From NCBI RefSeq assembly GCF_963924715.1, contig NC_089527.1:28186551-28250550 (forward strand): 64,000 nt of DNA. The letters run 5' to 3'. This DNA is from Thunnus thynnus. Its lineage: Eukaryota. The translations under genes were made by a program, and so were the position numbers. The notes under the pieces are model-generated. The model was not told where the DNA came from. It did not search any database and saw only the letters and a list, made by a program, of their open reading frames with translations. Positions 4,058 to 40,374 of this stretch are shown here, piece after piece; the stretch's first letter is position 1; each line of letters starts with the position of its first letter.

Positions 4058-4294
4058 TTACATTGAATGTACCGAGACAGCACAAATTCTATTGGAGCAA
4101 ACATTAGCGTTAGCTTGTAAAAACTGCAGAGTAACGCTTTGCTCTTTTATCTGGGCACACAGCATTAGCCTGGACATGAGCATCCAGTAGCTAACAAATG
4201 ATTATCAAGCTAACATTCCAACAGCACCTTTCATTTGTGCAGTAAACGCTACATTTGACATGAGCCACAAACAAGACATTTTGTTGCCAATAAA

Positions 4295-12889: not shown

Positions 12890-14290
12890 AAACACAGAAC
12901 AAGTAGTATTATACTCAGTGAACACTGGGCAGAATATCAAAGTTTTAATGTGCAAAATCAGGCCTGAGGAGTTGCCTTTGTCATATTAATCCTTCACAAA
13001 ATAATTTAAAAGTAACTGGTGTTTAAGCCATATTAAAGAAGAAAAAATAATACAAAAACAAAAAATATTGAGAAAATGAGAGTAAACATAAATTAAGATA
13101 GCAGCTTCAACATGTCTGTTAAGTAACCAACAAATGTAGCAAACTCCAAGGCTATACACTCTGTATGGCTTGTCCATGCTGAGCAAATAAGCTGAACAAG
13201 TAGTAAGCTATTACATTTGCGGTAAAAGTGTGCACTGCCCATAGTAACAAAAAAGAAAAAAAAATTCATATACAAAAACCAGGCCTGGGGAGCTGCCTTA
13301 ATCACATTATTTTCTAGATTAACCTACGCAAGATAAATTGTAGCCAGCTAGTGGCTAGGCCAGAGAAAAAAAAACTTGAAGGAAGGAGAATAGTAATACA
13401 TGAAAATTAGCAATGAAAATAACCAACAAATGCAGCAAATTCTGTCCAGGCTATACAGACTGTGTGGCTCAGCTGTGCTGAGCAAATCAGCTGAACATGT
13501 TAGTGTTCTATTCGGAGTTAAAGTGAGCACTGGCCAGAATACCAAAACCAAAACTAAAAAATAGGTGAAAGTAAACACAAAATAATAAAAGCAGCTGTAA
13601 TGTGTCCATTAAGTAACCAACCAATTCGGTAAACTCCATCCAGGCTATACAGACTCTGTGGTTCAGCCATGCTGAGAAAGTCAGCTGAACAAGTAGTATT
13701 ATATTCGGAGTAGAGGTGAGCACTGGCCGGAGTAACAAAAGTCTGTAATATACAAAATCAAGCCTGAAGAGCTGCCTTGATCACGTTAGTTTCCAGCTTT
13801 TCCTACATAAAATAATTTGAGGCCAGTTGGTAGTAAAAGCCGAATGAGAAAGGAAAAAATGAAAAAAGGAGAAAAAAATACTAAATTAAGGTAAGCACAA
13901 AATAAAATAGCAGCTATGATATGTCCATTAAGTAACCAGCAAATGCAGCAAACAACATCTAGGTTATACGGACTGTGTGGCTCGACCGAGCTGAGCAAAT
14001 CAGCCGAACAGATAGTGTTCTATTCGGAGTGAAAGTGAGCACTGGTCAGAGTAATGAAAACGTTTTAATATACAAAAACCAGGCCTGAGGAGCTGCTTTA
14101 CTCACATTCATTTCTGGCTTAACCTTCATAAAATAATTTAAAGCCAACTGGTGGCTAAGCCAGACAATAAGAAGAAATAATAAATAAAAGTAAGCACCTA
14201 GTAAGCACATAGTAAGGTAACAGTTCTGATATGTCCATTAAGTAGCCAACAGATGCTCCGACCTCTGTCCAGGCTATACCATGGATGTAT
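12890..14290. repeat. Satellite-like tandem array, ~190-320-bp units x ~5 copies
   Basis: Recurrent unit with conserved blocks 'gtaaccaacaaatg(c/t)agcaaa', 'aggctatacagactgtgtggct', 'gctgagcaaatcagctgaaca', 'ttcggagt.aaagtgagcactggcc', 'caggcctga.gagctgcctt.atcac' at about 13128, 13422, 13611, 13933 and 14235. The minus-strand ORFs across it (12986..13998) are repeat artefacts. Confidence 0.7.
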
Positions 14291-14700: not shown

Positions 14701-17290
14701 CTCCTGCCTCACACAGCCACACTCCCCATCCCCTCTCTCAGCCTCGTTTTTAGCATTTTTCAAAATTATGCAGTGGGTGGAGTTACACTCAGACCTGGGG
14801 ATGCAGTTACACTTTAAACAATAAATAAATAAGTGCATAATAAACACATTTCATTGTTTGTGACATTTTGATGGTAATGCTACAGGGCCATGTTAATGGA
14901 ATCCAAATTGGCAGTGTCAAAGATATTAGATATCTGCTAGAGTTAGAATAAATGATGATGATGATGATAGAGATGTTTACTGTATTTCAGTCTGTAATCT
15001 ATATTATAACGTACTGCTCACTTCTTTGCTTCATGGACTAAACTGTAGAGACCGATATAGTGATCCCTGTTTCATAGTACAAAGGCTGAGTAGTTATGAA
15101 ACCACCATTTACCTTCTTGCAACTCCTCTATTTTTTCATTTAATCTATCTATTGTTGGCTGGTCTGCGTAACAGACATATTTTGAATTTGGCCTTAAATG
15201 TTTTTGCAAATCTACACTGTTCTCAAAAAATGCCCTCTGTAGGTTCAAAATAGTCTCTCAAGCCAATGTCTTTCTTCTGAAATATTTGAATATCGCAGAG
15301 ACAATTGGCTATGGAGTAGCACTGAGAAGAGGAAGGGGAAAGACATCCACTGGAATCACTTGGTAGTGCATGGATTTTGCAAAGATCCAGAATCAAGAGT
15401 CAACTCAGAAACATCTTTCTGCATCTGTATTTCTGCTCTCAACAGCTGCTTTGATATTTTTTTTGCAGTGGGACTTGTGTGAGACAAATGCAAGAAAAAA
15501 ATGGCATCTGGTATAGGAGATAAGGACGACAGACAGTTTAGTGGAAAGATTTGGAATGCTATGAGCCAAAACATCTACCTGGACAGACTGGGTTCAAAAT
15601 GAGTGAATCCAGTCATGTCAACTAAGAGCTTTAATCCATGCAATTTACCCATTAAGCACTCCACTCAAACTCTGAAATGCAGGTGATCAGGACTTTCAGG
15701 TTCACTGCACTGCTCTTCTTCTTTTCCTGATGCTCTTCTTTGGAGAGCATCAGGGCTGATCTTGAAGATGCACCTGTAGGTAAAGGAATACAAAATAATA
15801 TGAAATACAAACACTGTTAGATATCAACAAAACATCCACTCAGAATAACATTCCAATTTTATCAATCTCAAATAAAAGATACACAAGGGATGGCAGGGGA
15901 GACAGCTAAGGGCATGTATACTGGTTGCTAGTTTCAATTGAGCACCCTGTTGTTGTACCGCTGCAGTACATGAAGTGTGTGGATGTGTGTGAAAATTGTT
16001 GTTACAAGAGGGCAGCAGAGGGCTCACTTCACTCCTATACCCCTTGTTTGTAGTTCTTCTGGGCTGTTTCTATGCTGAAACCTCCTTGATGTCAACAACT
16101 ATGACAAAAAATAAAATATGACATCCCAGTAAAGTCATTCACTTGCATTGTATACTTGAAAATCTAGCTCACTGTATCCAAGTTGCATAAGGCACCTTTA
16201 AACTAAACCATGAGGCAAAATCAAATTTCCAAATAATCTACAAAGCAGATGAGCAAGACACTACCTTGATTGGAAACTTACTTCATATTTACTAATACTG
16301 ACAAAAAGCCTGCATCTTGCTTTTACAGGTTTGTCCTAGCCAGAGGAATTTTCATCTGATTAAATTAGCAAAATGTTTTGTGCTACCATGTGGGATAGTC
16401 TTGGGGGGTTGATTTTGGCAGAAATTAGTTGAGAAAGTGAGGAACAACGCTGGGTCCCTGCATACGGAACCTTAAATATTTGTGCCAGGTATCTGAGGAA
16501 GTGAAAATGTGCACAAGGAAGTGGAAGGTTTGTCTGCAAGAGATGTCGAGACAGACCCAGCATATGCGCAAGACAGACTGAAACTGTGCACGAACGAGAG
16601 AATGAAATATGGTCTGTGAGAGATTAAAGATTTTTGCTGATGTGCAAACTGCTCTCTAGACACCCAGTAGAGCTGGTATTGCTGATTTCAAAGTACATAC
16701 AACTTACAAGTACATATGCTAAATAAACCTATGCTAAACCTTAAAAGTTCCAGTTTTATCTTATGTCAGTTATAAAAAAAAGATTAAGGATGTCTGATTG
16801 GTCAGACCTGGATTAGTGGGTTTAATGTGACTTTTAAATATCAAAATTTGCAATAAAATTGTCTTCACAGACGAGCACTGTATTACTGAGGATACTGGTA
16901 TTTTGCTGTAATCTTCCAGCATACTGGTCCACCTTGTGGACAGAGTGGCTGCAATTAACCGCTTTGAGTTTTAGTAAGTAGTTTTCCCTCATCTTCTAAA
17001 CTTTTAATCAAACAATATCTATAATCCCATGGTGCAAAAAAGTGGATATTGAGCAACTTGTCATGTCAACATTAATTTTACAGTGATTCAGATTTTAAAT
17101 TGCAATGAATTGTAATTCTATGGTTGTACTGGATGAATTGCTGGTATTTATATGCTGATGTGTGTTTTTAGTTTTGTCTGTAGAATTGTCAGTGTGATAG
17201 AGACTATGTAATGGTGTTGCATGGAAATTAATGTTTTTATTATCTGGAAATTGTTCTGTGTACCTGCCCAGGGACTGCAGATGGAAATTA

Positions 17291-17379
17291 GCTAATAGCT
17301 AAATCTGGCATAAATCATATCTTCTCATTTTGAGATTAATGTTTTTTGTGCATTATTATTATTATTATAATTATTATTA

Positions 17380-17438
<59 letters not shown>

Positions 17439-17622
17439 AATAATAATAATAATAATTATTATTATTATTATTATTATTATATTATATATTATATATGCTA
17501 TATTATAGCATTATTATTATTATTATTATTATTATTAATAATAATAATAATAATAATAATGCACAAAAAACATTAATCTCAAAATGAGAAGATATGATTT
17601 ATGCCAGATTTAGCTATTAGCT
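17291..17622. repeat. Near-perfect ~330-bp palindrome: 62-bp unique inverted arms flanking an (ATT)n/(AAT)n core
   Basis: 17291-17352 'agctaatagctaaatctggcataaatcatatcttctcattttgagattaatgttttttgtgc' is exactly the reverse complement of 17561-17622 'gcacaaaaaacattaatctcaaaatgagaagatatgatttatgccagatttagctattagct'. The interior is (att)n switching to (aat)n around a centre near 17490 ('tgctatattatagca'). Confidence 0.85.
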
Positions 17623-17668
17623 TATTATTATTATTATTATTATTATTAATGATAATAATAATAATAAT

Positions 17669-17731
<63 letters not shown>

Positions 17732-17735
17732 TGGC
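17623..17735. repeat. Second (TTA)n/(ATA)n microsatellite, itself switching strand polarity at 'taatga'
   Basis: 'ttattattattattattattattaatgataataataataat...(aat)n' lies directly 3' of the palindrome. ORFs 17346..17576(+) and 17670..17933(-) (poly-I/N/Y) are translation artefacts of these repeats. Confidence 0.8.
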
Positions 17736-19267
17736 TGAGTAACTAAAGAGCTTATTTTCTATTTCACCATTTATGATATACATATATTTATATATACATT
17801 TATTATATACATATTTGTTCTGTAAGGTTTTGAATAAGGTCAACAATTCTTGATATGTACTAGTGGAGCAGTTACTGAAAAAATAGGGAAAACAATATCT
17901 TCCAGTAACATACTCTTTGTTTGTGATAGACAATTTTATAATAAGTGCCCATAACCTTGTATAACCAAAATGGGGTCAATGGAACCACTCAGATTTCCCT
18001 TTATAATCAGTAATCAGTATAATCTAGAGAGCAGTTCATATATCAGCAGTGGTGATTCGGCACTGATAATATCAACAATAATAATACATAATACATAATA
18101 TTGACGTGAGTCTTCATGCCGACAAGAGACTAGGTAGGGCCATTCTTCCTTAAGGGCCTGTGTGTCGTTACCAAACCCTATGTCATTTCTCTGAGATACG
18201 AAGGTGTCTGAGATTATTATTAGATTTTTTTTTTTTTTTGCATTCCTTTCTTTTTTCTTTGTCATCTGTGCTTCCACATTCATAGACCCACTTTCCTAGT
18301 GAATACACCCATAGGAGTCTCTCCATAGCTTCTTATTTTCTGAAACAGTGCTGTTGTCATTTGGAGTGCTTTTCTGTTGCTTACCCAGCATCTCATTTCC
18401 CTTGTAGTTATCAACTCTGCACTGAAGTTGTTTTGTCAAAGAATCATTGCCACTTGCAATTATGTCTTTGAAAGACTTTGGATATGCTAGGACCATCTCA
18501 CGTGCCACTTCACTTAGGTGCATCTTTGCTGGTTCTTTGCAAATGGCAAGGATTTCAGCTAAAATTATGATTTATTTAAATCATTTCCCTACTTTACCTG
18601 GCTGATGGCTGTTCATGATTGTGATTTCTTCCTCAAAACAGCAGGCTGCATGTTCCAGACTGCTGTATCGCTCTGAGCTGAGAAGACATGTAAAAAGCAC
18701 AGAGACACATTCACTCAAAAAGATCAATGTCATCTTTTATCAGGGATTCATTTTTGCATGTGTAAATACACTACTTTGTGGAAACTGAGGATGGAATACA
18801 TCTATATCACTTCTATTCAAAATACAGGTCCTTTGTGTCAATAATTACAAACAATGCAATCAAAAATACATTCAAATGTTCATTGTAGGCCTATTTGAAG
18901 CTAGTGACTAGCTGACAAATTCTGTCAATCTTAACAGAGCTCAGGCAATCAGTTTGGAAGTGAAATATGTTTTTATTCCAATGACATAGTAACCCAACAA
19001 CATCGTGTCAGATCAGTCTCAATATTAATTAATTCACACAGAAGGATTCACAAATGTATTTAGGGATTTATATATAAATGGCTCTCTCCACAAAAACATT
19101 TTTCAAGGCACTCAAAAATAGTCATTGTTGTATATAAATGTAAAACAAATCATCATATAAAAAAATAAGGTTCACAAATGTATTTCTGATGCACACAAAT
19201 ATTTATTGTTTTAAATAAATGTAGCAGAAATCCAGAAACATATGTATTTAAGAGTATTTGGAGTTTT

Positions 19268-23500: not shown

Positions 23501-23727
23501 TGAACCCTTCTGTAATGAAGCAGGAGGTCTGTCTGGGGGAAAGATGTAAGGGAGATGACAGCAACCCAGAGCCACTCAGTCAGTCCGGTCAGTCCACTTG
23601 ACTGGGCCAGTCACTATCACAGCACTCTCTCTCCATTTATTTCATTGCATTGGCCCAGTTTATGTAATGGCCCACTATGAAATCTCTCAGTACTCCAGAT
23701 GGCCATTCTGCCTTGGGCTTATAGCTT

Positions 23728-24305
23728 TTTGGTAACATTTCATTTTACAGGTCTTCAAATTTCATGGTAATTTCATAGAAAGTAGGTGATAATTAGCAAG
23801 TAATTTCCAACTAATTTCTTTGAAATTACCAGCTAATTTCATGGTAATTTTATGGAAAATAGGTGATAATTAGGAAGTAATTTCCAACTAGTTTCTGCCT
23901 AACTTCTGCAGGCCAGTAAATTGAAGTATATTTTTTAACCATTTACATTCTCACCAATTTCTGTATATTTTCAGCAGATCAGTCCAACTTTGTAACAAAT
24001 TTCATTAATGTCGTTTTTTTTATCGTAAGCCACCATCTCTCAATGTATTGTGTATGAGACCCTGTCTGTGCATGCACAAAGTGTTGCCTATGGTTGACTT
24101 GATAATGGATGTAACCATCTTGTGACAGTCTTTGATGCACTCTCCAACAATCTGTGATAAAAAACAAAACTAATAAAGACAAACTACTGAAAACTAAACT
24201 GAAGCTAAACTAAATTGGACATGAAATTCAAAAAATAGTATAGAAATAACAATTAGGCTAATTGAAAAGAGAAAAGTAAAATAACCTGTGTGTGTGTGTT
24301 TTAAT
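23728..24305. repeat. Arm L of a large inverted duplication (partner arm at 26385-28690)
   Basis: The rc of 23730-24000 matches 28395-28690 (e.g. 'aaatttgttacaaagttggactgatctgctg' and 'tagttggaaattacttg.taattatcacctactttctatgaaat.accatgaaatttg'). The rc of 24190-24300 matches 26388-26520 ('caattagcctaattgttatttctatactatttttgaatttcatgt'). Confidence 0.8.
23979..24182 (-). pseudogene. ISL2EU-type (IS4EU/ISL2EU superfamily) transposase C-terminal fragment
   Basis: ORF '...RLSQDGYIHYQVNHRQHFVHAQTGSHTQYIERWWLTIKK' carries the ISL2EU-like C-terminal 'HxxVNH...FV...TG.HT..IE..W' signature. A mirror copy lies in the other arm. Confidence 0.5.
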
Positions 24306-26504
24306 GTTTGCTTTATGTCTAACAATCACCAAATCAAGGATGAGAGGTAAATGTAACCTGTGTGTAACCTTCCTCTTGTGGTAGGGAATCTATGCTGCTG
24401 ATCTTGGGTATAGTACCTACAGTATCTAAATCTGGAGTTCTCTAAAGCATCTTAGACCCAAGATCTTACAGTTCAGACAGATTACAGGTTCACTCAGTTT
24501 TCTAGGTTCACCAAATTCACTAGGTTCAATAAGGAGATTGGTGGTAGCAGACTCTAAAAAGAGAGAAGTAAGACCTCCAACCCACACAAAACACATGACC
24601 ACTGACTCAGAAATATAAAGATATATTTATAAAGGCATTCTGTCCTGTTTAATTTTCCTGATAGCTTCTTTTTATACTATATGTATTGTGTTTGGCCATG
24701 TTTTCCATTGTGTTTTGACCATCAGTTTCAGCTCGTTTACTATAATAACCTTGACACATACACAATCACATACACTTGTGGGCTGATGTAGCAGTATAAC
24801 CCATTGTGGGTGACTGAAAACTGTGAACAGTAGGTCAACAGATCTGTCTGACTGTAAACATGGGTAGTCAGACAAAAGAAGTGGAGTACTATCCAGTTGT
24901 ACCTTCCTCCTTCATGCTGTAAATGTTATAGTCACCTGCTGTGATGACAGCACTGTCCCACCCACAAAGTTATCTGAGTGGTTGAAACATGCAGATTGAC
25001 TGATAAAGACTGATAACTGATAATAAGTGCATTTTGGTCTAACTGACGATACATTCAATTTGTGTATGAATGACCACTTCGTAATTTCTTATTTACTGCA
25101 ATTTTGGTTTTACATTCATTTGTGTTTAATTTTATTTCTGTGATATAATTGAGTTGAAGATTTGCATCAAATTAAGAAATTTAGTTTTAGTTAGTTTTTT
25201 CCTGAGTCACCATTACCATGCAGGCATACACCTTTGGTGCACTGAGTAGGCAGAATCTGCACACCATTTGACAGTTATCATAGCCGGCAGATACGCCAGA
25301 TCCACTGCCAAATTTCAGCGGCTAGAGCAGCATTTACATCACCATGACAACATCACTCATACGAACACAAGCAAGTCAAGGAAGACTGAAGACAGAGAAC
25401 TGATGAATGCCATTCAGGCTTACATAAAATCATATTGTCAAAATTACTGTCCATGCTGACAAATATTTGTCACCTAGGGAAGCTACCATGGCGTTTGCCC
25501 GTATAGTTAGCTAACACTATGCAGCAGTATTCTGGCTAGGGATGTCAACGGGAAACCATCAAGAATATTTTTTACCAGTTACGCATGTCGGTCTATAGTT
25601 AAATTTGTATACACACTCCACTAACAGCTAGACAATTATGTGTTCACAACATCAGATATGTAAAACTGACTCCTACATGGAGTGTTGCATTACAGGTTGT
25701 TTGTAGCCTTAATGTTGCTAGGCTAGCGAGAGTCTTAATCTTAATCTGTTTATAGTGAGTGTGTTAGAGTCAGCCAGCATTAAAAGTCTTTTGTTAGTCC
25801 GGTTTAACCTGCAGGAGTTTCTGAAAGCTTGTGTAACGTGTTTTTCTGCAACAGAGGAAATAAATTCATGACGAGTGAAAATGAGTCCGAAGTGTATTCC
25901 AATGTGTCTACTGCAGAAACGGAATATGTCAAGCACTGTTACAGATGATAAGGAGCTCAGAAAGACACACAGGCAGTCTTATAAATGCTAACAGCTGGAG
26001 AAAATCATTTTGACTGCTTCAAAGAGCCTGGTAGGAGAGTGTGTGACTGGTAAACTGGTAAACACAATGTGTATTAATACTTGCACTGAACAGCATTTAG
26101 CTCCTTGTGCTTATCACATAACGTTAATTGTTAGCTAATGTTAGCTAGCAGGCTAGCTGTTAATGTTTATGTTAATGTTACATATATATTTGCGGGAGTG
26201 GTAGAAATCTTGCGCTACAGTTGATGTCCAGCATGATGACTGAGACACTGGAAAATGTAGAGTCTGTTTATTTGCTGCTTTGTTTTAAATGAGGAAATCC
26301 ACAATTTCTTTTAGGGGCACAACGGCCAGTTCAAAACAGGGCATGCTAAACTGGCAAGGTGGGTAGTTAATTTATAGCATATATTCAAACACACACACAC
26401 AGATTATAATAGTTTTCTTTCATCAATTAGCCTAATTGTTATTTCTATACTATTTTTGAATTTCATGTTCAGTTTAGTTTAGCTTCAGTTTAGTTTTCAG
26501 TAGT

Positions 26505-26816
26505 TTGTTTTTATTAGTTTTGTTTTTATCACAGATTGTTGGAGAGTGTATCAAAGACTGTTGCAAGATTGTTAAGTCAACCACAGGCGACACGTTGCAT
26601 GCACAGACAGGGTCTTATACACAACACATTAAGAGAGCCCGGCGTACTTATAAGGAGAACATCTACCGCTTCAGGGGGAACCGAATGCCCTCAGCTCTTA
26701 AGATGAACCTCAGATTCATTGAGTGGAACCACTGGTTGGCCAAAAAACACTGTGATGGAGTGGTTGGATGCCTTTTTAAAGACATCAGAGTATTATTTAA
26801 GGTGTACAAGTTTTAA
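26505..26816 (+). pseudogene. ISL2EU-type transposase C-terminal fragment (mirror of 23979-24182)
   Basis: ORF '...TGDTLHAQTGSYTQHIKRARRTYKENIYRFRGNRMP...' is the partner of 'FVHAQTGSHTQYIERWW' on the opposite strand. Confidence 0.5.
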
Positions 26817-26959
26817 CACAAATGTGTTTTCATTTCAAAACCTTTTTAAAAGTTACTTTTTTCCTGTTTATTATTAATTTGTTTATGTATTGTTGTCTCA
26901 AAATATAAAAAAATAACTTTTAACTTGAGGTGTGCATGCACTTCAGGGTGTGCTCCTTC

Positions 26960-28225
26960 TCAGCATTCCGGGAAAAGCTTAAGCCAGGGTGCTGGAAAGG
27001 TGGCTCCAGCCGATTGTCTAACCTCAGATTAAGGAGGAACAATACAGATTTCGTCCTGGTTGTGGAACAGTGGACCAGCTCTTCACCCTTGCAAGGGCAC
27101 TTGAGGGGTACATCCAGTCTACATGTGCTTTGTAGACTTGGAAAAGGCTTACAACCATGTCCCTTGGGGCACCTTGTGGGTGGTGCTGTGGGAGCATGGG
27201 GTACCGGGGTTGTTGCTGCAAGCCATTCAGTCCTTATATAACCGCAGTGAAAGCTGTGTTCGCGTTCTCAACAGTAAGTCAAACTCATTCTCAGTGGGTG
27301 TTGGGCTCCACCAGGGTTGTCCCTTGTCACTGATTGTTTTTGTGATTTTCATGTACAGAATCTCAAGGCACAGCTGGGGGGAGGAGAGTGTCCAGTTTCA
27401 GGACCTAAGGATTGCTTCTCTGCTTTTTGCAGATGATGTGATTCTGTTGGTTTCAACACACCATCACCTCCAGCAGGCACTGGGACAGTTTGCAGCCAAA
27501 TGTGAAGCGGCCGACATGAGAGTCAGCACCTCAAAATCTGAGGCCATTGTGCTCTGCTGGAAAAAGGTGGACTGCTCCCTCTGAGTTCGGTGTGAGTCGC
27601 TGCTCCAAGTGAAGGACTTCAAGTATCTCGGGGTCTTATTCACAAGTTAGAGTAAGATGGAGCATGACATTGACAGGCGGATCAGTGCAGCATCAGCAGT
27701 AACACGGGTGTTGTGCTGGACCACTGTGGTAAAGAAAGAGCTGAGTCAGAAGGCAAAGCTTAATTTACCAGTTGGTCTATGTTCCAACCCTCAACTATTG
27801 TCACGGGCTTTGGGTAGTAACTGAAAGAATTAGATTGCAAATACGAGCGGCCGAGTTTCCTCCAGAAAGTGTCTGGACTCAGCCTTAGAGATAGGGTTAA
27901 GAGCTCCGACATCCGACCTTGAAGTAGAGCCACTGCTCCTTTGCATCGAAAGGAGCCAGCTGAGGTGGTTTGGGCACATGGTTAGGATGCCTCCTGGACG
28001 CCTCCCTCTGGAGGTGTTCCAGGCACATCCAACTGGTAGGAGACCCCGGGGCAGACCCAGAACACTCTGGAGGGATTACATATCTCTCCTGGCCTGGGAA
28101 CGCCTTTGGATCCCCCAGGAGGAGCTGGAGGGCGTTGCCAGGGAGAAGGATGTCTGGGTTTCCTTATTCAGTCTAATGCCGACCAAGTCCCGGATGGGCA
28201 ATGGAAAATGGATGGACTTTTAACT
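26960..28225 (+). mobile_element. 5'-truncated LINE (L2/CR1-like or Rex-like) reverse-transcriptase and C-terminal region fragment
   Basis: RT motifs in frame: 'FVDLEKAYNHVPWGTLW', 'GLHQGCPLSLIVF', 'LLFADDVILL', 'VSTSKSEAIVL'. C-terminal 'SQLRWFGHMVRMPPGRLPLEVFQAHPTGRRPRGRPRTLWRDYIS...WERLWIPQEELE' is typical of fish LINE ORF2 tails. Stops and frameshifts are present. Confidence 0.8.
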
Positions 28226-29999
28226 TCAGTGGTGTGAAGACATTATTATCAGGCCTCAATAAGCAGGCAAGGAATGAGACTTTGAAAATGGGCAATTAGT
28301 AACTTGGTTCTTTATTATGAAGTTGTATTTCTCTGTAATCTGCAATTTATGGTGGCTTACAATTTTTTAAAAATGACATTTACAAAATTGTTACAAAGTT
28401 GGACTGATCTGCTGCACTTATGCAGAAATTGGTGAGGATGTAAATGGTGTACTTGAAATTACTGGCCTGGCAGGAGTAAGGCAGAAACTATTTGAAAATT
28501 AAGCTGCAACAACTTCAATTTAGTGGTCTGCTCAGCAGAAGTTAGGCAGAAACTACTTGGAAATTATCATGAAATTTGTGGGTAATTTTAAGGAAATTAG
28601 TTGGAAATTACTTGTTAATTATCACCTACTTTCTATGAAATCACCATGAAATTTGTGGACCTGTAAAATTAAGTGTTACTAGCTTTTTTAATGCGATATT
28701 ATACTAAACAACAGATTTATAATACTCTAACAGTACTATCTTGCATGTTCTCGAACTTTATTAAAGGATGGCATATTCCTCCTCCTCATCTGGATAATGA
28801 TAATAATAAAACATTTGCCATTCCCGCAAAAAATCTTACACAGAAAAACCTGAGATCTGAAACAAAATCTTACAGTAGATATGCTTTCATCTACTGTAGT
28901 TGAAAATGCAAAAATAGAAGTGGAACATGAGGATGGGCCACTGACAAAGCCAGGAACAAATAAAAGGCTTCAGTCTTTCCCAACAGGAAGAGAGGGATTG
29001 ATCTGTTTGTGGTTCAAGCAGCTTCTCTCTCTGACTCACCCACCAGATTTCAACATTTCAGATGTGTATGTTCATTATTTGTATCCCTTTTTTCAAGATA
29101 AAGTTAAAATGATGTTAATTACATGTGAGAAGGATTGTCTGTGAGTCACAGTTGCAGTATAGTTCATAAGCTTTTCTTCACACACTACCTACCCACTCAT
29201 CTACACACAGGCAAACACAGAGTACAAAAAAGGGAGCAATACCATGCAGTCATACTGCAATAACCAGCATTTTACTGGTTCAAATGACTCCATAATGTGA
29301 AAGGGGTTGCTCATAATGCCAAAATAAATATGTATTTAATGCCATTTTAATTAAAAACATTACTGATTTCTCTTTGCATTGGTACAGTATTTAGGAATAT
29401 TTTGAATGCAACTGATTACCTGCCTTCTGTACAATTCATGTTATCATCATGTAAATTTTGTGAGGGCCCAAAAGCAAGATGCAGGGGTGAAGCAGGTAAG
29501 GTAAAAAATGTAGTTCACTTGGTCTTTGTCCAAAAAACAAAGTCAGCAACAGGTAGGCCGTCAGCAAAGGTAAACAAGTGCAAAAAGGCAAACAAAATCC
29601 AAAAACAGGCAGAGCTCCTGAGGAGACAAGTAGGCTGGCAGTGCAAGGACTGGAAATATTAAGGCTATGAGGCACAACAGATGATCAGGCCATAGGCGGC
29701 GCAAGAGACTTTAGTCTTGTTGGGGCTAGCTATGGAATTTGAGATAGGTTTGGAATTTGTAACGCAGACATAAATATATGACCCATATACAAATACGTTA
29801 TTGTCCTGTTAGCATCGACAGCTACTGACTAGTGCTAGCGTGTTCCAGCTCCAGTAGTTTACCAACTGGACCTACAAGTAGTCAGTCTGTCTCCAAGCTC
29901 CTGAAATCACATATTTTGCGAGACGTCTGACTAAAATTTTCTGTGTCACTGTCTGGTGGGACCAGCCCTAAAGGATAAAGCTGACAATTTTCTATATGT

Positions 30000-30420
30000 A
30001 TTTTTTTAAGTCATCAAATCTCATGTGCAGAGCCAAACCAACAATGAACCGATCCTACTTACAAGTATTGTGTGTGTATCAAAAGCCTGATATATCTTAT
30101 TCCTCCGTGTCATAGAGCTCTGTTGTTGTCCAAAAACTATTAAAAACACATCAATGAGCAGCACTACTGCACTGGGTGACATGCTCCTTCATCCCTGAAG
30201 AGAGTGATTACCGTTTATTAAAAACAGCTGTTTTTTTAATAGTTTTTGGACAACATTGGAGATCTATGGCACAGAGGAATATGATATATCAAACTTTGGA
30301 TACATGCACAATACTTGTAAGTAGGATGACTTCATTGTTGGTTTGGCTCTGCACATGAGATTTGTTGACAATAAGAAAAAATATAAAAAATGGACAGCCT
30401 TATCCTTTAAGCTTGAGGGC
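30000..30420. mobile_element. Foldback/MITE-like element with ~63-bp inverted arms and ~230-bp loop
   Basis: 30012-30074 'catcaaatctcatgtgcagagccaaaccaacaatgaaccgatcctacttacaagtattgtgtg' is the reverse complement of 30307-30369 'cacaatacttgtaagtaggatgacttcattgttggtttggctctgcacatgagatttgttgac'. A related half-copy lies at 52920-53060. Confidence 0.5.
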
Positions 30421-32300: not shown

Positions 32301-34537
32301 TTGAACACTTTAGTGATGTCTGTGATTGTTTCTGATGCTGTTTGTATGTGCTTGTATGTGTGACTGGCTGTGCTTTGTTGTATGTCTTATCTCCGTTCTT
32401 ATTTCTTCTACTGTACTCAGGTTTCTCCAAACGAGATATTCATCGCATTGAGACTACATGATTAGATAAAGGTTATACAATTTTTGGGGCAATAAAATGG
32501 AATATAACTAGTTCAAGTTTTATGTAAAGATATTGCAGTGATGGCAATGTAAGCACTTATTGCATAGGGGGCAGTAAGGGAAACCCTAACTGGCTTTTCC
32601 AAGTAGTTTGGATGGAAAATGTAATTCCTACCTGGATATTTTTCACTGGCAATATTTTCGAGTCAAGTCCAGGCATTTTCATACTGCACACACATTGGGA
32701 GGTTTTCTGGGTGGATGGTGGGCTTACAAAGTGCAGGTTTTTGACACTAGAGACCCAAACTCGCATCCTTATTTACGTCTGTGTTTAGGGAACATCACAC
32801 TTTGGTTATGGTAAGAGAAAAAATGTGGTTTCAGTTAACTGTTAATAAAGTAAACATGTCCTGCCTCATGCTTCATGTCATTGTTGACAAACACATTATT
32901 TTCCCTAACCTTGACCATGGTCTGTGGGTGCCTAGACGTGAGCATAGAGATGATTCTGCTATTACAGAACACCTCAGGCAGGCACAGTTTTAAAGGATAG
33001 GTTCACAAGTTTTCACCCAGACAACAGTCAGGTGCCCAGATGAACACCGACACATTATTTTTTGCTGGCCATTAAGAGATCCTTTCATAATACACTTTCA
33101 ATTCAAGTGATGGGGAATAAAATCAACAGTCCTCAGTCTGTATTTAACCTTTTAAAATCCACTGGGTCACCAGCGACCCGCTTAAGCCAGTTGGAAGCGG
33201 TAGTGTCACGCAATAATGAGTAAAAGCAATTGGCACAATTTGGCCAATTGGAGATGACTGGAGAGGTTCGGGGACACCAGTGACACCACAAAAACTCCCT
33301 AGCTCCCATAAGGTTAGGCCTAAAGGTCTGGAATTTTATACAGGTTGACAAGATGTAGAAAGTATATGGTGTTCTGCATAGTTCTGGCATAAAGTATGTC
33401 CTAATTATTATTATTAGAATATGACTCATAATAGCTGAGGACCAAAAACACTTTTTTGAGCCATATTTGAACTGACGTAATTTTGTTTGCGTTTTAGCCG
33501 CATGCTAAACAAGCACATTTCCAGAAACTAGAAGATGTCACTTGTCAAATGAAGCCCAATACATGCATTGTGGCCTTACAGTTCTTCTGTTATAAGCTTT
33601 TCCATCTGGGTGTGCAAAATAGGCAAAAATTCTATAAAAAGGGTGGCTGTTAAGGGGTTAAAGATAATATGAGACTTCAGCCATCCAAATTAGTCAAATC
33701 AAGTCAATATTCCCTCTTTTTGTTACTATCCTTCCACTGCAGCTAAACAGGCCTTGAAACACAAATAAGGATTTTATTTTCTAAAATCAACTTTATTTGA
33801 TTAGCCTCATATTATCTGCTGATAAGCTTTTGAAGACATTTTTCTCAAAACCAGGACTTTAGATTTTGTCCCCCAACACTTACATTGTAGGTATATTTGG
33901 AGTGGATCTTTTAATAGCCAGTATGAACAGGAGAAATGATTGCAGTGAGAAAAACCTGTTTCAATGTTCGTATGGGCACCTGTTGTTTTAAGAAAGAACA
34001 AAACAAAAAATGTGAACATATCCTTTAAGCATGTTTTGAAATGACAGAACTCTCTGGTGTTTACACATTATATCCAGTTATATCAAACATTAATTAAGGA
34101 ATAATCATTACCAGTATACCAGTACCAAGCACCCTACTTACACCACTGACAAGAAACATGCAATCTTGGATAAACTGTGTATACTTTACAAGCAAGAAAA
34201 CGCATCTACTTTTATAATATAGTAAGCAGTGCAAAAAATACATTATTTCTCATACAGAAAAAAAGACATTTTTCAATTTATTCACATTGGGATTCAATGT
34301 TTGTTCAATGTATTTTTTCTGTATCATTTATGTATGGCTAGATTTGTATAAACTGCTGTTTTATTTTTTAAAGAGACACTTGGTACAGTAATACACTTTC
34401 AATATACATTTACTTGCCTTGTTTCCGTTGTTTATTTTCACATTTTATTTTCAAGATAAATGTATTCTATCTTTTAAAGTAGTAAAATAATGAGTACACC
34501 ATGTGCAGAAAGATGTAACACTCATTGAGCAGATTAG

Positions 34538-34694
34538 TCACTTCAGCTTGACTTCATTTGGAATAGGTAAGCCTTTCACGCCAGCCAGGGCATTTTCCAC
34601 CATCTTCTCTACCATCCTGCTTGCTGTATTGTAGGTATTGATCCCAATGTGGGGGGTGATCAGCACATTAGGCAGGCTAAGGAGAGGATGATCC
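34538..34694 (-). CDS. grhpr: GRHPR-like D-2-hydroxyacid dehydrogenase, gene copy A, exon 5 (last; includes stop)
   Basis: Acceptor 'cttgtgcag|GGATCATCC'. Encodes 'R DHPLLSLPNVLITPHIGINTYNTASRMVEKMVENALAGVKGLPIPNEVKLK*', aligning with the human GRHPR C-terminus ('HPLLTLKNCVILPHIGSAT..TR..M....A.NLLAGL.G.PMP.ELKL'). TGA stop at 34538-34540. Paralog assignment is uncertain. Confidence 0.85.
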
Positions 34695-35458
34695 CTGCAC
34701 AAGATGAAGCATGAGGAATGAGTGAGCAGAAAATAATACATTAATCATATATTACTGTAGGATAGTGCATCAGTCTAGCTTGAGGATGTTGTTCTGGGCC
34801 TGTATTTATCAAACTAGTAAAAGTAATTTCATATTTTGGACTTAAGTGAAAGATAGAAGTAAAAATCCTTCGCTTTTACTCCTTACAAACTTAAGAATAA
34901 AAACTATTTATCAAACTTCTTTTGACTTAACAATGCTCTGAAATTATACTAAATATCATATGTCATAATGAATAATACATTACCTGAAGCTGTATAATTA
35001 AGAATAGAGTGGTGTAGCCACATATATTATTTGCATTTGATAGGACATAAAACCAATTTTTCTTTTTTTCTTTTGTTGTTAATTTCACTTGTTAATTACT
35101 CCTGGAGATTTAAAGATTTCACAAAAATAAACTTTTCAAAGACATGATAATGATGTTTGTTTTTTCAGAATATCATACTATACCACTGTGTAAACAGTAA
35201 GGCTATTTTAAGTATGTACAAAATGGCAGATGCAGCTTCAATCCATATCTCTGATTGACGACTTCATGTGATCAATTATGTGATCACATGAGAGTTACTC
35301 TTAAAATTGACTTTTACACTTTACACTTTTACACTTGATAAATATGTGTAATTGCTCACACTCAGCCAAGAACTTTTTTTACTTCTAGGTTGACTCTTTA
35401 GGGCATTCATAAGTGTTATTTTTAGAATTCTGAGAGTGTATGTTCAATGAAGTGAGAC

Positions 35459-35555
35459 CTTGGTAAAGGTTCAGGATGGGTCACATCTAATGCCGCTGCA
35501 CGGATTGTAGCCAACTGGAGAGCTTTAACTAAGGCATTCTGATCCACAACTTGAC
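35459..35555 (-). CDS. grhpr: GRHPR-like gene copy A, exon 4 (97 bp)
   Basis: Acceptor 'tctcag|GTCAAGTTG', donor 'CCAAG|gtctcac'. Encodes 'G QVVDQNALVKALQLATIRAAALDVTHPEPLP R' (compare human '[33 protein letters not shown]'). Confidence 0.75.
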
Positions 35556-35646
35556 CTGAGACATGAAAAGAGCATTATTAAGGTAACGTTAACCAGTAAT
35601 GATTCAATCAAGATCAACACAGTCTAGGAAACACACTGTTCCCCAC

Positions 35647-35825
35647 CTCTGCTGATGTTGACTAGTGTTGCCGTGGGTTTCATGAGGGACAACTCTCTGT
35701 GGCCGATGAGGCTTGTAGTGTCAGAGGTCAATTTGACAGCTATCATGACAAAGTCCGACCTTCTCAGCAGGTAATCCAGGCTCTCACAGTAAATCGCCCC
35801 GACTGCCTGCTCATCTTCAGCACTC
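35647..35825 (-). CDS. grhpr: GRHPR-like gene copy A, exon 3 (179 bp)
   Basis: Acceptor 'tgtattcag|GAGTGCTGAAG', donor 'AGCAGAG|gtgggga'. Encodes 'SAEDEQAVGAIYCESLDYLLRRSDFVMIAVKLTSDTTSLIGHRELSLMKPTATLVNISR(G)', the substrate/NAD domain with the conserved 'NISRG' catalytic Arg motif. Confidence 0.85.
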
Positions 35826-36290
35826 CTGAATACAATAACAAATTCCAACTTTTTTATACTCCAGCTTTCTACAGTGTTGTCAACATAATTAATGAGAGAC
35901 TGTATCTTGTTTTTTCTATTTAAAACATAATCTTTTTTGTGAAAAAAAATCTAGGTGGGTGTATTTAAAAAAAAATAAATACACCCACCGTACCATGTAA
36001 GAAAAATATTTAAATACTTAACTCAGTAAAATACCACCTCGTTAACCATTAGCAGGTGAGAGTCAATGGCTCTACATTATTTCCTGTGCAAGCATGTTTG
36101 TTTTCCTGTATGGTCTTGTGTAGTACATTCATATTGAGTGGGAAAACCCCATGATCAACAGTGTAAACTATCAAATGCAGTCATTGGTTATTTCTGCAAA
36201 AATGCAAACAAAAAATACTCAAATATCATGTTGTTACATGCTAATTAAAGAAATAACCTCATTAGCAAAGTTTGTCGTCTCTTTTTTTAC

Positions 36291-36462
36291 CTTCTGGTTC
36301 TATTGTGATACAGGATCTTCATTTCAAATCCTCTGCTTCTTTGGGCAATTTTGTAACCAATCTCTCCCATTCCAATGATTCCCAGAGTCGACCCTGTGAC
36401 TTCAACTCCCATCAGGCTTTGCAGTATATGGGTGGTCTTTGGGTCAACAGCAATATGATGAC
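36291..36462 (-). CDS. grhpr: GRHPR-like gene copy A, exon 2 (172 bp)
   Basis: Acceptor 'ttcctcatag|GTCATCAT', donor 'CCAGAAG|gtaaaaa'. Encodes '(G)[56 protein letters not shown](R)' with the Rossmann GxGxxG 'GIIGMGEIG'. Confidence 0.85.
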
Positions 36463-36954
36463 CTATGAGGAAAAAGGATTAAAAAGTAAACATTTTATAT
36501 ATGTATTACAGACCTCCTCACTCTGCCCTGATTAACAAGTAGCAACAAGGAAGTGATCCCTCTCTGGTTTCCCACCCAGCAACACTAATAATTTTAGGAC
36601 AAAACAATACTCCATACGTATGTTTTGCGGTTTTTCTTCGACCAAGTTTTAAAAATTAAGATTTTCAGATGACTTTACCAGGTTATGGAAGCTGATAATG
36701 TGATTTTGCTACAATATCTAAAATAAATAAAAATATTCTTTACATTCATCTGAAAATTGTGGACAACTAAGGATTAATTCCCTATTAAGACATAATAAAT
36801 ATGAGCCCTGGGACAGATGAAGGAGTTGCTCTGTCAATTTAAGTGCACACAGATGAACTTCTTTGAGATAACAGATAGCTGTAGGTCTTGGTTTTGGAAT
36901 TACATGGAGATTGTCACACACTGGGCCTGGGGTTCAGATAATCTTTGATCTCAC

Positions 36955-37333
36955 CCTCAAGGATCTTGCGAGCTGATGCCAGAAGCAGACCCATGGCAAA
37001 ATCTGCAGTGGCATTGCTCACTACACGAGGTGTGTTGGCCACCTTCACCCCAAGACTGTTGATGAACGGTACATCCAAGTGGTCGATGCCCACTCCTGCA
37101 CTTGCAACCACTTTGAGGGAGGGAAGCAATCTGAGCAGCGAAGGCTCGGCTGCAGGGCAGTACTTCCAAATTAAGAGGGCCTGGATCTTGGGGCCATGAA
37201 GCACTGGGTTTTGTAGAAACTCTCTGTAGCAGATGATTTGGAAGTGTTGTTTCAGTATGTCAGCTAGCTCTTCAAGGTAACCATTCTCTCCCCCCACCTC
37301 TGAGACCAATGCCCATGGTTTTTCCTCTTCCAT
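36955..37333 (-). CDS. grhpr: GRHPR-like gene copy A, exon 1 (ATG at 37331-37333; 379 bp)
   Basis: ORF 'MEEEKPWALVSEVGG...LKVVASAGVGIDHLDVPFINSLGVKVANTPRVVSNATADFAMGLLLASARKILEG' ends at donor 'GAGG|gtgagat'. Aligns with human GRHPR '[55 protein letters not shown]'. The five exons total 984 nt, giving a 327-aa product. Confidence 0.85.
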
Positions 37334-37554
37334 TGCTTGATGGGATAAGACACAAAAGGACTTACTGTACCACCTGACTGAAAATAGAGTTCAATTAGTA
37401 CAAAAGTACATGCAAAATTCGTCTACTAGCAAGCATTTGAAATATGTAAAATTTTCCAACAAATTTAACGAACATTTCCTTGGATTTAAATGGAGCTGTT
37501 CTTTAAATGAAAAAAAAATCCCCTATAATTTGTATAAAATTACATACTTCTCTC

Positions 37555-38720
37555 CAGAAAACTTTCTAGGTGATTTCTTTTTACTCTGAGTTAGTTTTAC
37601 AAGGAAAACTCACCTTTTCAACCTGAGCATCGAGTTTCAGTCCTGCTGTTTCCTCAGACCGAGGTAGAAGCTGAGGTCTTTTTTTTTTTTTCGAACTGAT
37701 CTTTGAGCCGTGTTGTGTTTTCATTCTCCATGGATGAAGTTAGAGTTTAAACGAGGCATGTTAATGTGAAAACCTGTCCTCACACTGTGGCACAGAGAGG
37801 TGGCAGGGCAAGAAATGTTGTGCTTGGTTCATTATTCACAAAAACATGAAGTATCAAGGAATTTAAGGTGTGTACAAGTGTACAAGGTGCAAAATTTGAA
37901 AAATATTTGTTTTCATACATTTTTATCTTAATGTATGTCATGGTGATTATGGTGGAATATTAGACTAAACAGAACAGCTGACTACAAATGTATGGGGAAA
38001 AAAAAGCATTTAATCTTTTATATCAATAAAATAATCAATGAAGAAAACTCATATGTCTCATTTGTCTTGTATGAATATATTTATTTTACTTAGCCAAGAA
38101 GAAACTTGCACACAACATGCAATCTGAGGTAAAAAAAACTTTCTAGGTGATTTCTTTTTACTCTGAGTTAGTTTTACAAGGAAAACTCACCTTTTCAACC
38201 TGAGCATCAAGTTTCAGTCCTGCTGTTTCCTCAGACTGAGGTAGAAGCTGAGGTCTTCTTTTTTTTGAACTGATCTTTGAGCAGCGTTGTGTTTTCATTC
38301 TCCATGGATGAAGTTAGAGTTTTAACGAGGCATGTTAATGTGAAAACCTGTCCTCACACTGTAGCACAGAGAGGTGGCAGGGCAAGAAATGTTGTGCTCG
38401 GTTCATTATTCACAAAAACATGAAGTATCAAGGAATTTAAGGTGTGTACAAGTGTACAAGGTGCAAAATTTGAAAAATATTTGTTTTCATACATTTTTAT
38501 CTTATTGTATGTCATGGTGATTATGGTGGAATATTAGACTAAACAGAACAGCTGACTACAAATGTATGGAAAAAAAGCATTTAATCTTTTATATCAATAA
38601 AATAATCAATGAAGAAAACTCATATGTCTCATTTGTCTTGTATGAATATATTTATTTTACTTAGCCAAGAAGAAACTTGCACACAACATGCAATCTGAGG
38701 TAAAAAAAAAAAAAAAAAGG
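37555..38720. repeat. Tandem duplication, ~585-bp unit x 2, in the GRHPR A-B intergenic region
   Basis: 37558-38140 and 38145-38720 are near-identical ('aactttctaggtgatttctttttactctgagttagttttacaaggaaaactcaccttttcaacctgagcatc(g/a)agtttcagtcctgctgtttcctcagac...'). Each copy ends with a poly-A run. On the minus strand each unit contains '...caggttgaaaag|gtgagttttcc', a consensus splice-donor-like site. Confidence 0.85.
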
Positions 38721-39107
38721 AAGCTGTTATACATATATTGTAGTAAGCCAGAAAAGAGCACAAGATTAGGGGGAAATGTACTCATAATGTTTTGGTTATG
38801 ATAATGTCTGAACATAATCTTTATACTCACATACACCAGTTGGAGTCAGTTTTCTTTCCTATCCTAACACATTCCAGTCAGAACCAGTTTTGTACATCCT
38901 TGCCTTGCGACATTGTTCATTGGAACAGTACTAAAGGTTACAAAGTCCCTTCAAGTTATACAGCAGATGAGCAGCAATTTTCTCATGTACCTTTTGGCAA
39001 ATTCTGGCACAATAATTAGCCAGCATTTCACGGCAACAATTTATGACTCTACAATCGCCTAATTTGACACATGACAAAAATACCATGTAGTCTGAATCTG
39101 GCATTAG

Positions 39108-39264
39108 TCACTCAAATTTGACTTCATTTGGAATAGGTAAACCATTCACTGCAGCCAGGGCATTTTCAACCATCTTCTGTACAATCCCTCTTACTGTAGC
39201 ACAAGTATTCATGCCAACGTGGGGGGTGATTAGCACGTTAGGCAGGCCAAGGAGAGGATGATCC
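39108..39264 (-). CDS. grhpr: GRHPR-like gene copy B, exon 5 (last; includes stop)
   Basis: Acceptor 'cttgtgcag|GGATCATCC'. Encodes 'R DHPLLGLPNVLITPHVGMNTCATVRGIVQKMVENALAAVNGLPIPNEVKFE*'. TGA at 39108-39110. Confidence 0.85.
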
Positions 39265-39596
39265 CTGCACAAGATGAAACAGAGGAGTTGTAAGGAGTGG
39301 TCAAGGAGCTGGTTGAGTGTTTGGTAAATGTTCATTCTACGTAGTACGTAAATATATCACATTTTAAATTAATGAACTATACTGATTGTATTTTTTTTTT
39401 GTTTGTTTTTTATTTTGTAATTTCCTGTTCAGATCTTTCCACTGTCCTTGTAAGATGATAATGTCCCTGAATGCCTCACGTGTCTGTACACACTGTGTTC
39501 TTATGCAGACTGAAGAAGTGTCAAGGCCATGTTTAATACAATTTAAGTAACATTCGTTGCACTTTGTTGTACAATAAAGTGATTCAAAGATGAGAC

Positions 39597-39693
39597 CTCG
39601 GTAAAGGTTCAGGGTGAGTCACATCTAAAGCTGCTGCACGAATCATTCCAGACTGGAGAGCTTTGACTAAGGCATCCTGGTCCACCAATAGAC
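39597..39693 (-). CDS. grhpr: GRHPR-like gene copy B, exon 4 (97 bp)
   Basis: Acceptor 'tctcag|GTCTATTGG', donor 'CCGAG|gtctcat'. Encodes 'G LLVDQDALVKALQSGMIRAAALDVTHPEPLP R'. Confidence 0.75.
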
Positions 39694-39799
39694 CTGAGAT
39701 ATGTAAAGAGCAAAATATGGCTAAATATGAGAGTTTCAGATTCTAGCAATTATCTAATCAAAATGAATCAGTACAGTCTAGCAAACACATTGTTCCCAC

Positions 39800-39978
39800 C
39801 TCTGCTGATGTTGACCAGTGTTGCCGTGGGTTTCATTAGGGACAGTTCTCTGTGGCCGATGAGACCTGTCGTGTTGGGAGTCAGATTGACAGCTAGCATG
39901 ACAAAGTCCGCCCTTCTCAGCAGGTCACCCAGGCTCTCGCAGAAAGTCGCCTCGACTGCTTGTTCATCTTCAATACTT
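39800..39978 (-). CDS. grhpr: GRHPR-like gene copy B, exon 3 (179 bp)
   Basis: Acceptor 'tactgttcag|AAGTATTGAAG', donor 'AGCAGAG|gtgggaa'. Encodes 'SIEDEQAVEATFCESLGDLLRRADFVMLAVNLTPNTTGLIGHRELSLMKPTATLVNISR(G)'. Confidence 0.85.
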
Positions 39979-40202
39979 CTGAACAGTAACCAAGCGAACA
40001 AGAGTAGAAACATTGTCTCACTGAGTTATTGTTTTCAGATTTTTGTTTGTAATTTACAGTACACACACTGCAGGTCTTTTATGGTCCATTATTGAAAGTC
40101 AAGTATAACAGATTGTTTCAGAAATTACTTTTTTTTTTGGTCTGCACATTTCTATGAATTGATTTGTCAAAATGTAGTGATGATGTCATCAAACACGTTT
40201 AC

Positions 40203-40374
40203 CTTCTATTCCTGTTGTGATACAGGATCTTCATGTCAAATCCTCTGCTTCTTTTAGCTATTTTGTATCCAATCTGACCCATTCCAATGATCCCCAAAGT
40301 GGATCCTGTGACATCAACTCCCATCAAGTTTTGTGCTAAATAGGTAGTTTTTGCATCCACAGCTATTTGGTGAC
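40203..40374 (-). CDS. grhpr: GRHPR-like gene copy B, exon 2 (172 bp)
   Basis: Acceptor 'cttcatag|GTCACCAAATAG', donor 'AATAGAAG|gtaaacg'. Encodes '(G)[56 protein letters not shown](R)'. Confidence 0.85.

Follow-up and report, generated by a model that had tools for sequence, protein, structure and literature searches.

The Merlin superfamily of DNA transposons comprises the eukaryotic relatives of the bacterial IS1595/IS1016 elements. Merlin elements encode a transposase with a DDE_Tnp_IS1595 domain, carry terminal inverted repeats (TIRs) of 24-462 bp with a terminal 5'-GG, generate target duplications of 8 or 9 bp and occur in zebrafish (PMC8101967, summarising Feschotte 2004). The ISL2EU elements encode an IS5/PIF-like DDE transposase with THAP and helix-turn-helix (HTH) motifs as well as a second open reading frame (ORF) with a YqaJ domain, and they duplicate the 2-bp target AT (A/AT/T) (PMC4482050). 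In the element Goblin the longer TIRs are inversely duplicated subterminal sequences of its parent element Ozma, an origin ascribed to template switching in gap repair, and deletions are found at microhomologies (PMC3814204). The long TIRs of Galileo carry multiple binding sites, and long TIRs recur in several superfamilies (PMC3688188). The stretch analysed here is a 64,000-nucleotide segment of the Thunnus thynnus genome (contig NC_089527.1, positions 28,186,551 to 28,250,550), hereafter the window. Positions 23731-28679 of the window very probably constitute a single 4,949-bp transposon of the Merlin superfamily, non-autonomous and long dead, with long inverted ends and with a long interspersed nuclear element (LINE) and a deletion acquired later. 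The features of this element are collected in Table 1.

A perfect 9-bp direct repeat, TAGCTTTTT, adjoins both outer termini and was read directly from the sequence. This repeat is absent from an earlier reading of the same stretch, made from the letters only (the sequence-only reading). Among 2 million random position pairs of this window, the same 9-mer lay without mismatch beside both members of a pair (tolerance +/-2 bp) at a frequency of 9e-5. The left terminus, GGTAACATTTCATTTTACAGGTC, begins at 23731 with GGTAAC..., and the right terminus, ...GGACCTGTAAAATTAAGTGTTAC, finishes at 28679 with ...GTTAC. The reverse complement of the latter, GTAAC..., has one G missing or mutated, and the element edges read ...TTTTT/GG on the left and AC/TAGC... 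on the right. The terminal 22-mer, sought in the window with up to 3 mismatches, is present only at the outer ends (23732 and 28679), with 0 occurrences expected by chance. Because the 9-bp duplication abuts both termini and the 22-mer is confined to the outer ends, the data show that the whole unit integrated in one transposition event, which left a target-site duplication of 8-9 bp. The 8-bp alternative may also hold, with a mutated C as the final base of the right terminus. For a single insertion, the empty site would have been ...GGGCTTATAGCTTTTTTAATGCG....

Table 1. Features of the probable Merlin element and of the LINE nested within it (positions in the window).
Feature	Position	Strand	Basis
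Left target-site duplication copy, TAGCTTTTT	23722-23730		direct reading; 8-bp alternative AGCTTTTT, 23723-23730
Left arm (long terminal inverted repeat), 588 bp	23731-24318	-	alignment to right arm; terminal 22-mer
Subterminal array of ~11-bp TAATTTC-type motifs	23731-23920		motif count against expectation
Left-arm transposase pseudo-exon, ITDCW...VNH...HTQYIERWW	24015-24158	-	tblastn and Pfam PF12762
Unique asymmetric centre, 2,051 bp	24319-26369		negative searches
Right arm, inner part	26370-26636	+	pairs with 24037-24318, 90.2% identity over ungapped columns
Right-arm transposase pseudo-exon, ITDCW to natural C-terminus	26528-26816	+	tblastn against relatives P0001-P0008, E to 7e-31; alignment
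Transposon sequence in right arm only: transposase C-terminus and start of 3' non-coding	26637-26929	+	homology to relatives
LINE target-site duplication, 5' copy, ACTTTTAACTTGAG	26916-26929		13/14 match to 28216-28229
5'-truncated non-LTR (long terminal repeat) retrotransposon (LINE), 1,286 bp	26930-28215	+	RVT_1; translation; flanking repeat
LINE target-site duplication, 3' copy, ACTTTTAACTTCAG	28216-28229		13/14 match to 5' copy
Transposon 3' non-coding, right arm only (lost from left)	28230-28348	+	arm alignment
Right arm, outer part	28349-28679	+	terminus, TAATTTC-type array, local duplication 28470-28501/28535-28566
Right target-site duplication copy, TAGCTTTTT	28680-28688		direct reading

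The ends of the unit form a large inverted repeat. The sequence-only reading had placed such a repeat near 23728-24305 and 26385-28690, and BLAST and repeat finding bear this out with almost exact coordinates. When compared with the whole window, 23732-24036 pairs with 28679-28349 (340 aligned columns, E=9e-60) and 24036-24315 pairs with 26636-26373 (280 columns, E=5e-89), and BLAST detects no further copy of either arm in these 64 kb. The right arm measures ~1.0 kb once the LINE is removed. The inner boundary of the left arm lies at a (GT)n run (~24288-24299) and the similarity has gone by ~24318-24330; a sensitive search did not extend it past ~24318-24330 on the left or 26358-26370 on the right. 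Over ungapped columns the identity is 90.2% in the inner block (Kimura two-parameter distance, K2P, 0.105), 88.2% in the proximal outer block (K2P 0.129) and 89.4% in the terminal 105 bp (K2P 0.115). The divergence is uniform along the arms, at 10-13%, and the longest identical run is 36 bp. This uniformity fits one duplication event, not a conserved short TIR combined with an unrelated similarity. Arms so diverged and broken up, with no longer identical run than these 36 bp, pose no evident risk to genome stability today; inversion of the spacer by recombination between the arms, as had been suggested, is now unlikely.

The outer ~200 bp of the arms contain 6 (left) and 3 (right) TAATTTC motifs, spaced at ~11 bp, against 0.11 expected per 200 bp. 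These motifs are plausible candidates for transposase-binding sites, by analogy with Galileo and with elements of the inverted repeat/direct repeat (IR/DR) type (PMC3688188). The left arm additionally holds a local 62-bp tandem duplication (23758-23819/23835-23896, 92%). Taken from the outside inwards, the data show that both arms are copies of the same (3') Merlin end, with its terminus, motif array, 3' non-coding sequence and transposase from the second catalytic D onwards.

Each arm carries a transposase-like fragment, in opposite orientation, as the sequence-only reading had stated and as ORFs and tblastn confirm; the fragment is the 3' part of a DDE transposase gene. On the left, the ORF (24158-24015, minus strand) translates as ITDCWRVHQRLSQDGYIHYQVNHRQHFVHAQTGSHTQYIERWW. 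Of the DDE domain it retains the second catalytic D together with the E region, and a deletion ends it directly after ERWW. This pseudo-exon is 54-62% identical to its relatives in tblastn (E down to 3e-18) and matches positions 81-128 of the Pfam profile PF12762 (E=0.005). On the right, the pseudo-exon repeats the left-arm sequence, broken by a 12-bp deletion and a frameshift, then runs on through ...RTYKENIYRFRGNRMPSALKMNLRFIEWNHWLAKKH...FKDIRVLFKV and ends at a stop codon (26814-26816). The reconstructed fragment of 107 residues matches PF12762 (DDE_Tnp_IS1595) at profile positions 81-130 of 153 (E=2.8e-5, 24.6 bits). It also matches the NCBIfam model NF033547 (transpos_IS1595; E=3e-8), the sole NCBIfam match. 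The protein database returned eight relatives with 58-70% identity, all eight with PF12762; the one named source is a goby. Three of these relatives (P0002, P0005 and P0007) score 65-72 bits against the PF12762 cut-off of 27.

For both the fragment and its relatives, no PIF/IS5-type DDE, THAP or YqaJ model was matched at E<=10, and only IS1595-family models responded. The element is assigned to Merlin and not to ISL2EU because only IS1595-family profiles match and because the duplication is of 8-9 bp, not AT. The ISL2EU label of the sequence-only reading fails the profile search which that reading had itself chosen as the test, since PF12762 and NF033547 are the only models found. The duplication in the flanks measures 9 bp. 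A terminal GG is also common in ISL2EU TIRs (PMC4482050), but with the profiles and the duplication both pointing elsewhere, an ISL2EU (PIF/Harbinger-related) element is next to impossible here. An ISL2EU second ORF (YqaJ exonuclease) was also sought in six frames of 24300-26400 and not found, which is a weak test, as non-autonomous copies may lack this ORF.

The features of Merlin are recovered as follows. The catalytic domain is of the DDE_Tnp_IS1595 type, the duplication of 8 or 9 bp (TAGCTTTTT) abuts both termini, and the TIRs carry the terminal 5'-GG, complete on the left (GGTAAC...) and one G short on the right. A complete DDE triad and an intact ORF, which define autonomy, are lacking, and this leaves the superfamily membership unaffected. 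The N-terminal half of the DDE domain, with the region of the first D, is absent from the window (tblastn with the eight relatives, word size 2, E<=5). As the element encodes no functional transposase, it is non-autonomous and dead and must have been mobilised in trans. Today it does nothing.

Compact distant relatives from metagenome contigs, used as a positive control, are 0.9-1.4 kb long with TIRs of 24-35 bp, and most of them begin with GGTAC or GGATC, against GGTAAC in the window element. Among them, the contig L023 (1479-2615), as well as L017, L018 and L024, contains a compact IS1595/Merlin-type element of 0.9-1.1 kb with TIRs of 29-35 bp starting GGTAC/GGATC, and L023 bears a clean 8-bp target duplication, GGTCATCC. 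In the contigs of the closest relatives (L002-L005, from Logan/ENA) and in the metagenome loci L006-L030, the DNA similarity to the window is limited to the coding block. Around the P0007 gene in the goby, examined for canonical termini, the sole inverted repeats are tRNA-derived short interspersed nuclear elements (SINEs). A conserved arm 26-mer has no match in the scanned metagenome contigs. Among the nearest Merlin-type relatives on other fish-derived contigs (L002 994-1438 and L005 175-619, also L003, L004, L006 and L007), the likeness to one another (up to 85% nucleotide identity) and to the window is restricted to the ORF. It ends with the stop codon, and TIRs could not be detected. These sequences could belong to divergent families of great age or to a Merlin-derived gene that is conserved, and possibly domesticated, in teleosts.

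In both arms the homology to the transposase breaks off upstream of ITDCW, at one and the same residue, a point that the relatives (the goby gene and those from Logan, ENA and the metagenomes) read through in a single ORF. The ~160 bp upstream of ITDCW are common to both arms, unrelated to the relatives, and end at a (CA)n run in both. Because of this shared loss at ITDCW and the same (CA)n end, both arms must descend from one copy, and the arm was copied from a gene that was already truncated. The uniform divergence and the shared ITDCW truncation therefore indicate a single end-duplication event.

This evidence bears directly on the proposal that two independent Merlin copies lie head-to-head with host DNA between them, either as plain neighbours or as a later composite (macro)transposon moved by its outer ends. 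In its favour, the outer terminus is complete in each arm, and the gene fragment that the arms share is oppositely oriented in them. A large deletion and local duplications distinguish the arms, which might be expected of independent copies, and the non-coding unique centre could be host DNA. In its composite version the proposal would also yield an outer target-site duplication. However, inner termini are missing and the 22-mer stands at the outer ends only. The two copies would moreover have needed identical truncations, since both end at the same (CA)n inner boundary after the same non-homologous 160 bp. As plain neighbours, they would leave unexplained a single 9-bp duplication located at the outer ends only. 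Two copies are consequently improbable. A composite of two complete elements was considered on its own terms and rejected, because each element should retain both of its own termini and the terminal 22-mer is confined to 23732 and 28679. The sequence-only reading had offered the arrangement as two head-to-head ISL2EU copies, and this version falls to the same observations: a single outer duplication, no internal termini, and identical inner boundaries and truncation.

The target-site duplication at the outer termini contradicts the other origin offered there, a hairpin-mediated inverted duplication, if this is placed in the chromosome itself. In a more general form, the arms would have arisen in place after insertion, by hairpin or foldback repair or by a replication template switch, independently of transposition. 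Foldback repair is known to give large inverted duplications with a unique spacer, and the uniform arm divergence agrees with one event. Such an event would nevertheless duplicate or disrupt the host flanks and would not set a perfect 9-bp repeat at two intact termini. At this locus the similarity stops exactly at the termini and no flank is duplicated. An in-place duplication is thus very improbable.

A further alternative is a variant of the explanation favoured here, a Merlin with one duplicated end, and differs from it only in the time at which the arms arose. Long arms would be normal for an entire Merlin family of this fish, whose ancestral TIRs would already have measured 0.6-1 kb and overlapped the transposase end, and the present copy would be an internal-deletion derivative. 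Merlin TIRs of up to 462 bp have been published (PMC8101967), long TIRs recur across several superfamilies (PMC3688188), and the element demonstrably transposed with these arms. Against this, a 5' arm with an inverted pseudo-copy of the last exon still needs an end duplication at some time, and the compact relatives have TIRs of 24-35 bp. The shared ITDCW truncation also implies an already broken gene, which is hard to square with an autonomous founder. A family-wide origin of the long arms is therefore rather unlikely, while keeping some credit.

The centre of the element was searched in several ways. The sequence-only reading had recommended a search of the spacer for the remaining N-terminal part of the transposase, and this returned nothing with either tblastn or six-frame Pfam. 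With stops masked, no Pfam domain was found in six frames of 24300-26400, and tblastn with the eight relatives (word size 2, E<=5) detected no transposase remnant in the centre. The whole window gave no Rfam match. A sensitive search revealed no self-similarity or palindromy in the centre, BLAST revealed no other copy of it in the window, and internal termini, sought throughout the window with the terminal 22-mer (<=3 mismatches), were not found. The centre could be either transposon-internal non-coding DNA or captured DNA. Transduplication, the capture of host sequence by transposons, is best known from the Pack-MULEs of plants. A corresponding 'Pack-Merlin', in which the centre is captured host DNA carried by a two-right-ended Merlin derivative that moved in trans, is an improbable proposal. 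If true, it would extend transduplication to a vertebrate Merlin, with arms of 0.6-1 kb that are longer than any on record in this superfamily.

A stretch of 1,712 bp (26637-28348) without counterpart on the left interrupts the right arm; ~412 bp of it are transposon sequence and 1,286 bp a LINE. The sequence-only reading had described the right arm as split by a 1.3-kb LINE. The nested LINE with its RVT_1 domain stands (E=2e-20), but the interruption is larger than was proposed and only 26930-28215 is LINE. The segment 26637-26816 is homologous to the C-termini of the relatives; it is thus ancestral and was lost by the left arm. About 110 bp of 3' non-coding sequence follow the stop codon within 26637-26929.

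The LINE displays a reverse transcriptase, a 5' truncation and a target-site duplication. Its RVT_1 match (E=2.2e-20) covers profile positions 67-203 only, without the endonuclease or the 5' part. Its reverse-transcriptase ORF has decayed and its 3' tail reads ...AATGGAAAATGGATGG. This short-repeat tail (AATGG/ATGG) resembles those of L2-type elements. An exact look-up of the LINE ORF returned no record. The insertion is flanked by a 13/14 direct repeat, ACTTTTAACTT(G/C)AG, equalled in 5 of 2000 shuffles, and its site lies 100-115 bp downstream of the transposase stop codon of the right arm. That the left arm lacks the LINE had been taken to mean that the LINE postdates the inverted duplication. 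This does not follow, because the left-arm deletion spans the LINE site and the absence cannot order the LINE insertion and the formation of the arms. The left deletion may have removed ~412 bp without a LINE, or ~1.7 kb including one. Its junction lies in a ATGGTGGCTTAC motif with an imperfect likeness to the sequence at the proximal breakpoint. The loss was possibly a microhomology-mediated deletion, of the kind described in PMC3814204.

The following history may be proposed for the locus. One end of an already truncated Merlin would have been copied, in inverted orientation, onto the other side of the element. The likely mechanism would be a template switch, or foldback synthesis, while an excision gap was being repaired, on the model proposed for the derivation of Goblin from Ozma. 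The product would be an element with two identical 'right' ends that the transposase could still pair. Since the target-site duplication brackets the whole unit, the end duplication must have preceded the last transposition. After the arms had formed, the left arm would have lost ~412 bp (or ~1.7 kb), possibly between imperfect ATGGTGGCTTAC-like repeats, and the 5'-truncated LINE would have inserted in the right arm. Small local duplications would also have appeared in each arm, and the arms would have drifted to 10-13% divergence.

Several observations weigh against this account and against the Merlin assignment that underlies it. The 24.6 bits of the reconstructed fragment are below the Pfam gathering threshold of 27, since no more than a third of the domain is spanned. 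No TIR pair at all is seen on the contigs of the nearest relatives (L006-L008). Arms of 0.6-1 kb overshoot the 24-462 bp published for Merlin TIRs, and at the right terminus one base of the expected ...CC is lacking (an 8-bp duplication with a mutated end base, or the loss of one base). The microhomology at the left-arm deletion is imperfect, with ~7 of 9 bases, and the template-switch mechanism is drawn from precedent in other elements. Finally, the evidence comes from one copy at one locus.

Other repeats and genes are present in the window. Two Tc1-like elements with TIRs of ~220 bp, at 4288-5438 and 44126-45664, are 84-88% identical. The latter extends over the full length (1.54 kb), and its transposase has decayed but retains VKHGGGSIMVW, DNDPKHTS and WPSQSPDLNPIE, and the former is internally deleted. 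A comparison of the arm divergence with these copies, as the sequence-only reading had advised, was made, and because the Tc1 copies are 84-88% identical the Merlin arms are broadly similar in age. A foldback palindrome of ~440 bp, resembling a miniature inverted-repeat transposable element (MITE), occupies 29969-30409, 1.3 kb downstream of the Merlin element; its arms (30001-30150/30229-30378) are 86% complementary, and a copy at 52872-53076 is 75-77% identical. An inverted pair of interspersed repeats (46146-46504 and 63979-63629) is 88.6% identical, and an ORF at 46149-46574, overlapped by the repeat copy at 46146-46504, resembles the C-terminal part of a LINE reverse transcriptase.

The segments 34533-37356 and 39103-41711 form a tandem segmental duplication with 77-85% nucleotide identity. 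It carries two paralogous first exons of a D-2-hydroxyacid dehydrogenase/GRHPR-like gene, on the minus strand at 36914-37333 and 41293-41736. Their homologues contain PF00389, and all named homologues of the exon are from teleosts (best 88%). Between these exons, a very young tandem duplication of ~580 bp (window 37558-38709; 37558-38138 and 38135-38709) is 97% identical. A dense palindromic and tandem-inverted array at 17286-17747, self-complementary at 79-88% over 340-400 bp, lies where the window is richest in AT (GC 0.30), and 12897-14256 holds a degenerate tandem array, whose direct matches overlap one another and show 70-82% identity over 130-530 bp.

For annotation purposes, the locus should be labelled as one non-autonomous Merlin with a nested LINE, and neither as ISL2EU nor as a chromosomal inverted duplication. 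It provides a clear single-locus case in which a cut-and-paste element carries the same end on both sides, with pseudo-exons in its arms, and was still mobilised. As such, it fits the template-switch model for the origin of long TIRs and of some MITE-like families.

In comparison with known systems, the resemblance to ISL2EU (PHIS superfamily; PMC4482050) is superficial and confined to the frequent GG at the start of the TIRs and to a size of ~4.8 kb. The AT duplication, the IS5/PIF-like DDE transposase with THAP/HTH and the YqaJ ORF of ISL2EU are all lacking in the window element. With Galileo (P superfamily), Bari3 and the Sleeping Beauty-type IR/DR ends (PMC3688188), the element shares long repetitive TIRs and repeated short motifs near the ends. 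The superfamily is different, and long TIRs are a family trait in Galileo, whereas the window element is known from one copy. Goblin, which derives from the Tc1/mariner element Ozma of Aedes aegypti (PMC3814204), is likewise non-autonomous, with TIRs lengthened by an inverted subterminal duplication. Goblin belongs to another superfamily and its TIRs measure 54 bp, whereas the arms in the window are ~10-20 times longer and include coding sequence. With the Merlin superfamily itself, the element has in common an IS1595-type transposase remnant, an 8-9 bp duplication, a terminal 5'-GG (GGTA...), TIRs and a teleost host. It departs from the other members in arms of 0.6-1 kb against 24-462 bp, in the inverted transposase pseudo-copy within the arms, in the lack of an intact transposase and in the 2-kb centre. 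The element is an ordinary decayed repeat, and its sole unusual aspect is an arm length beyond the published Merlin range.

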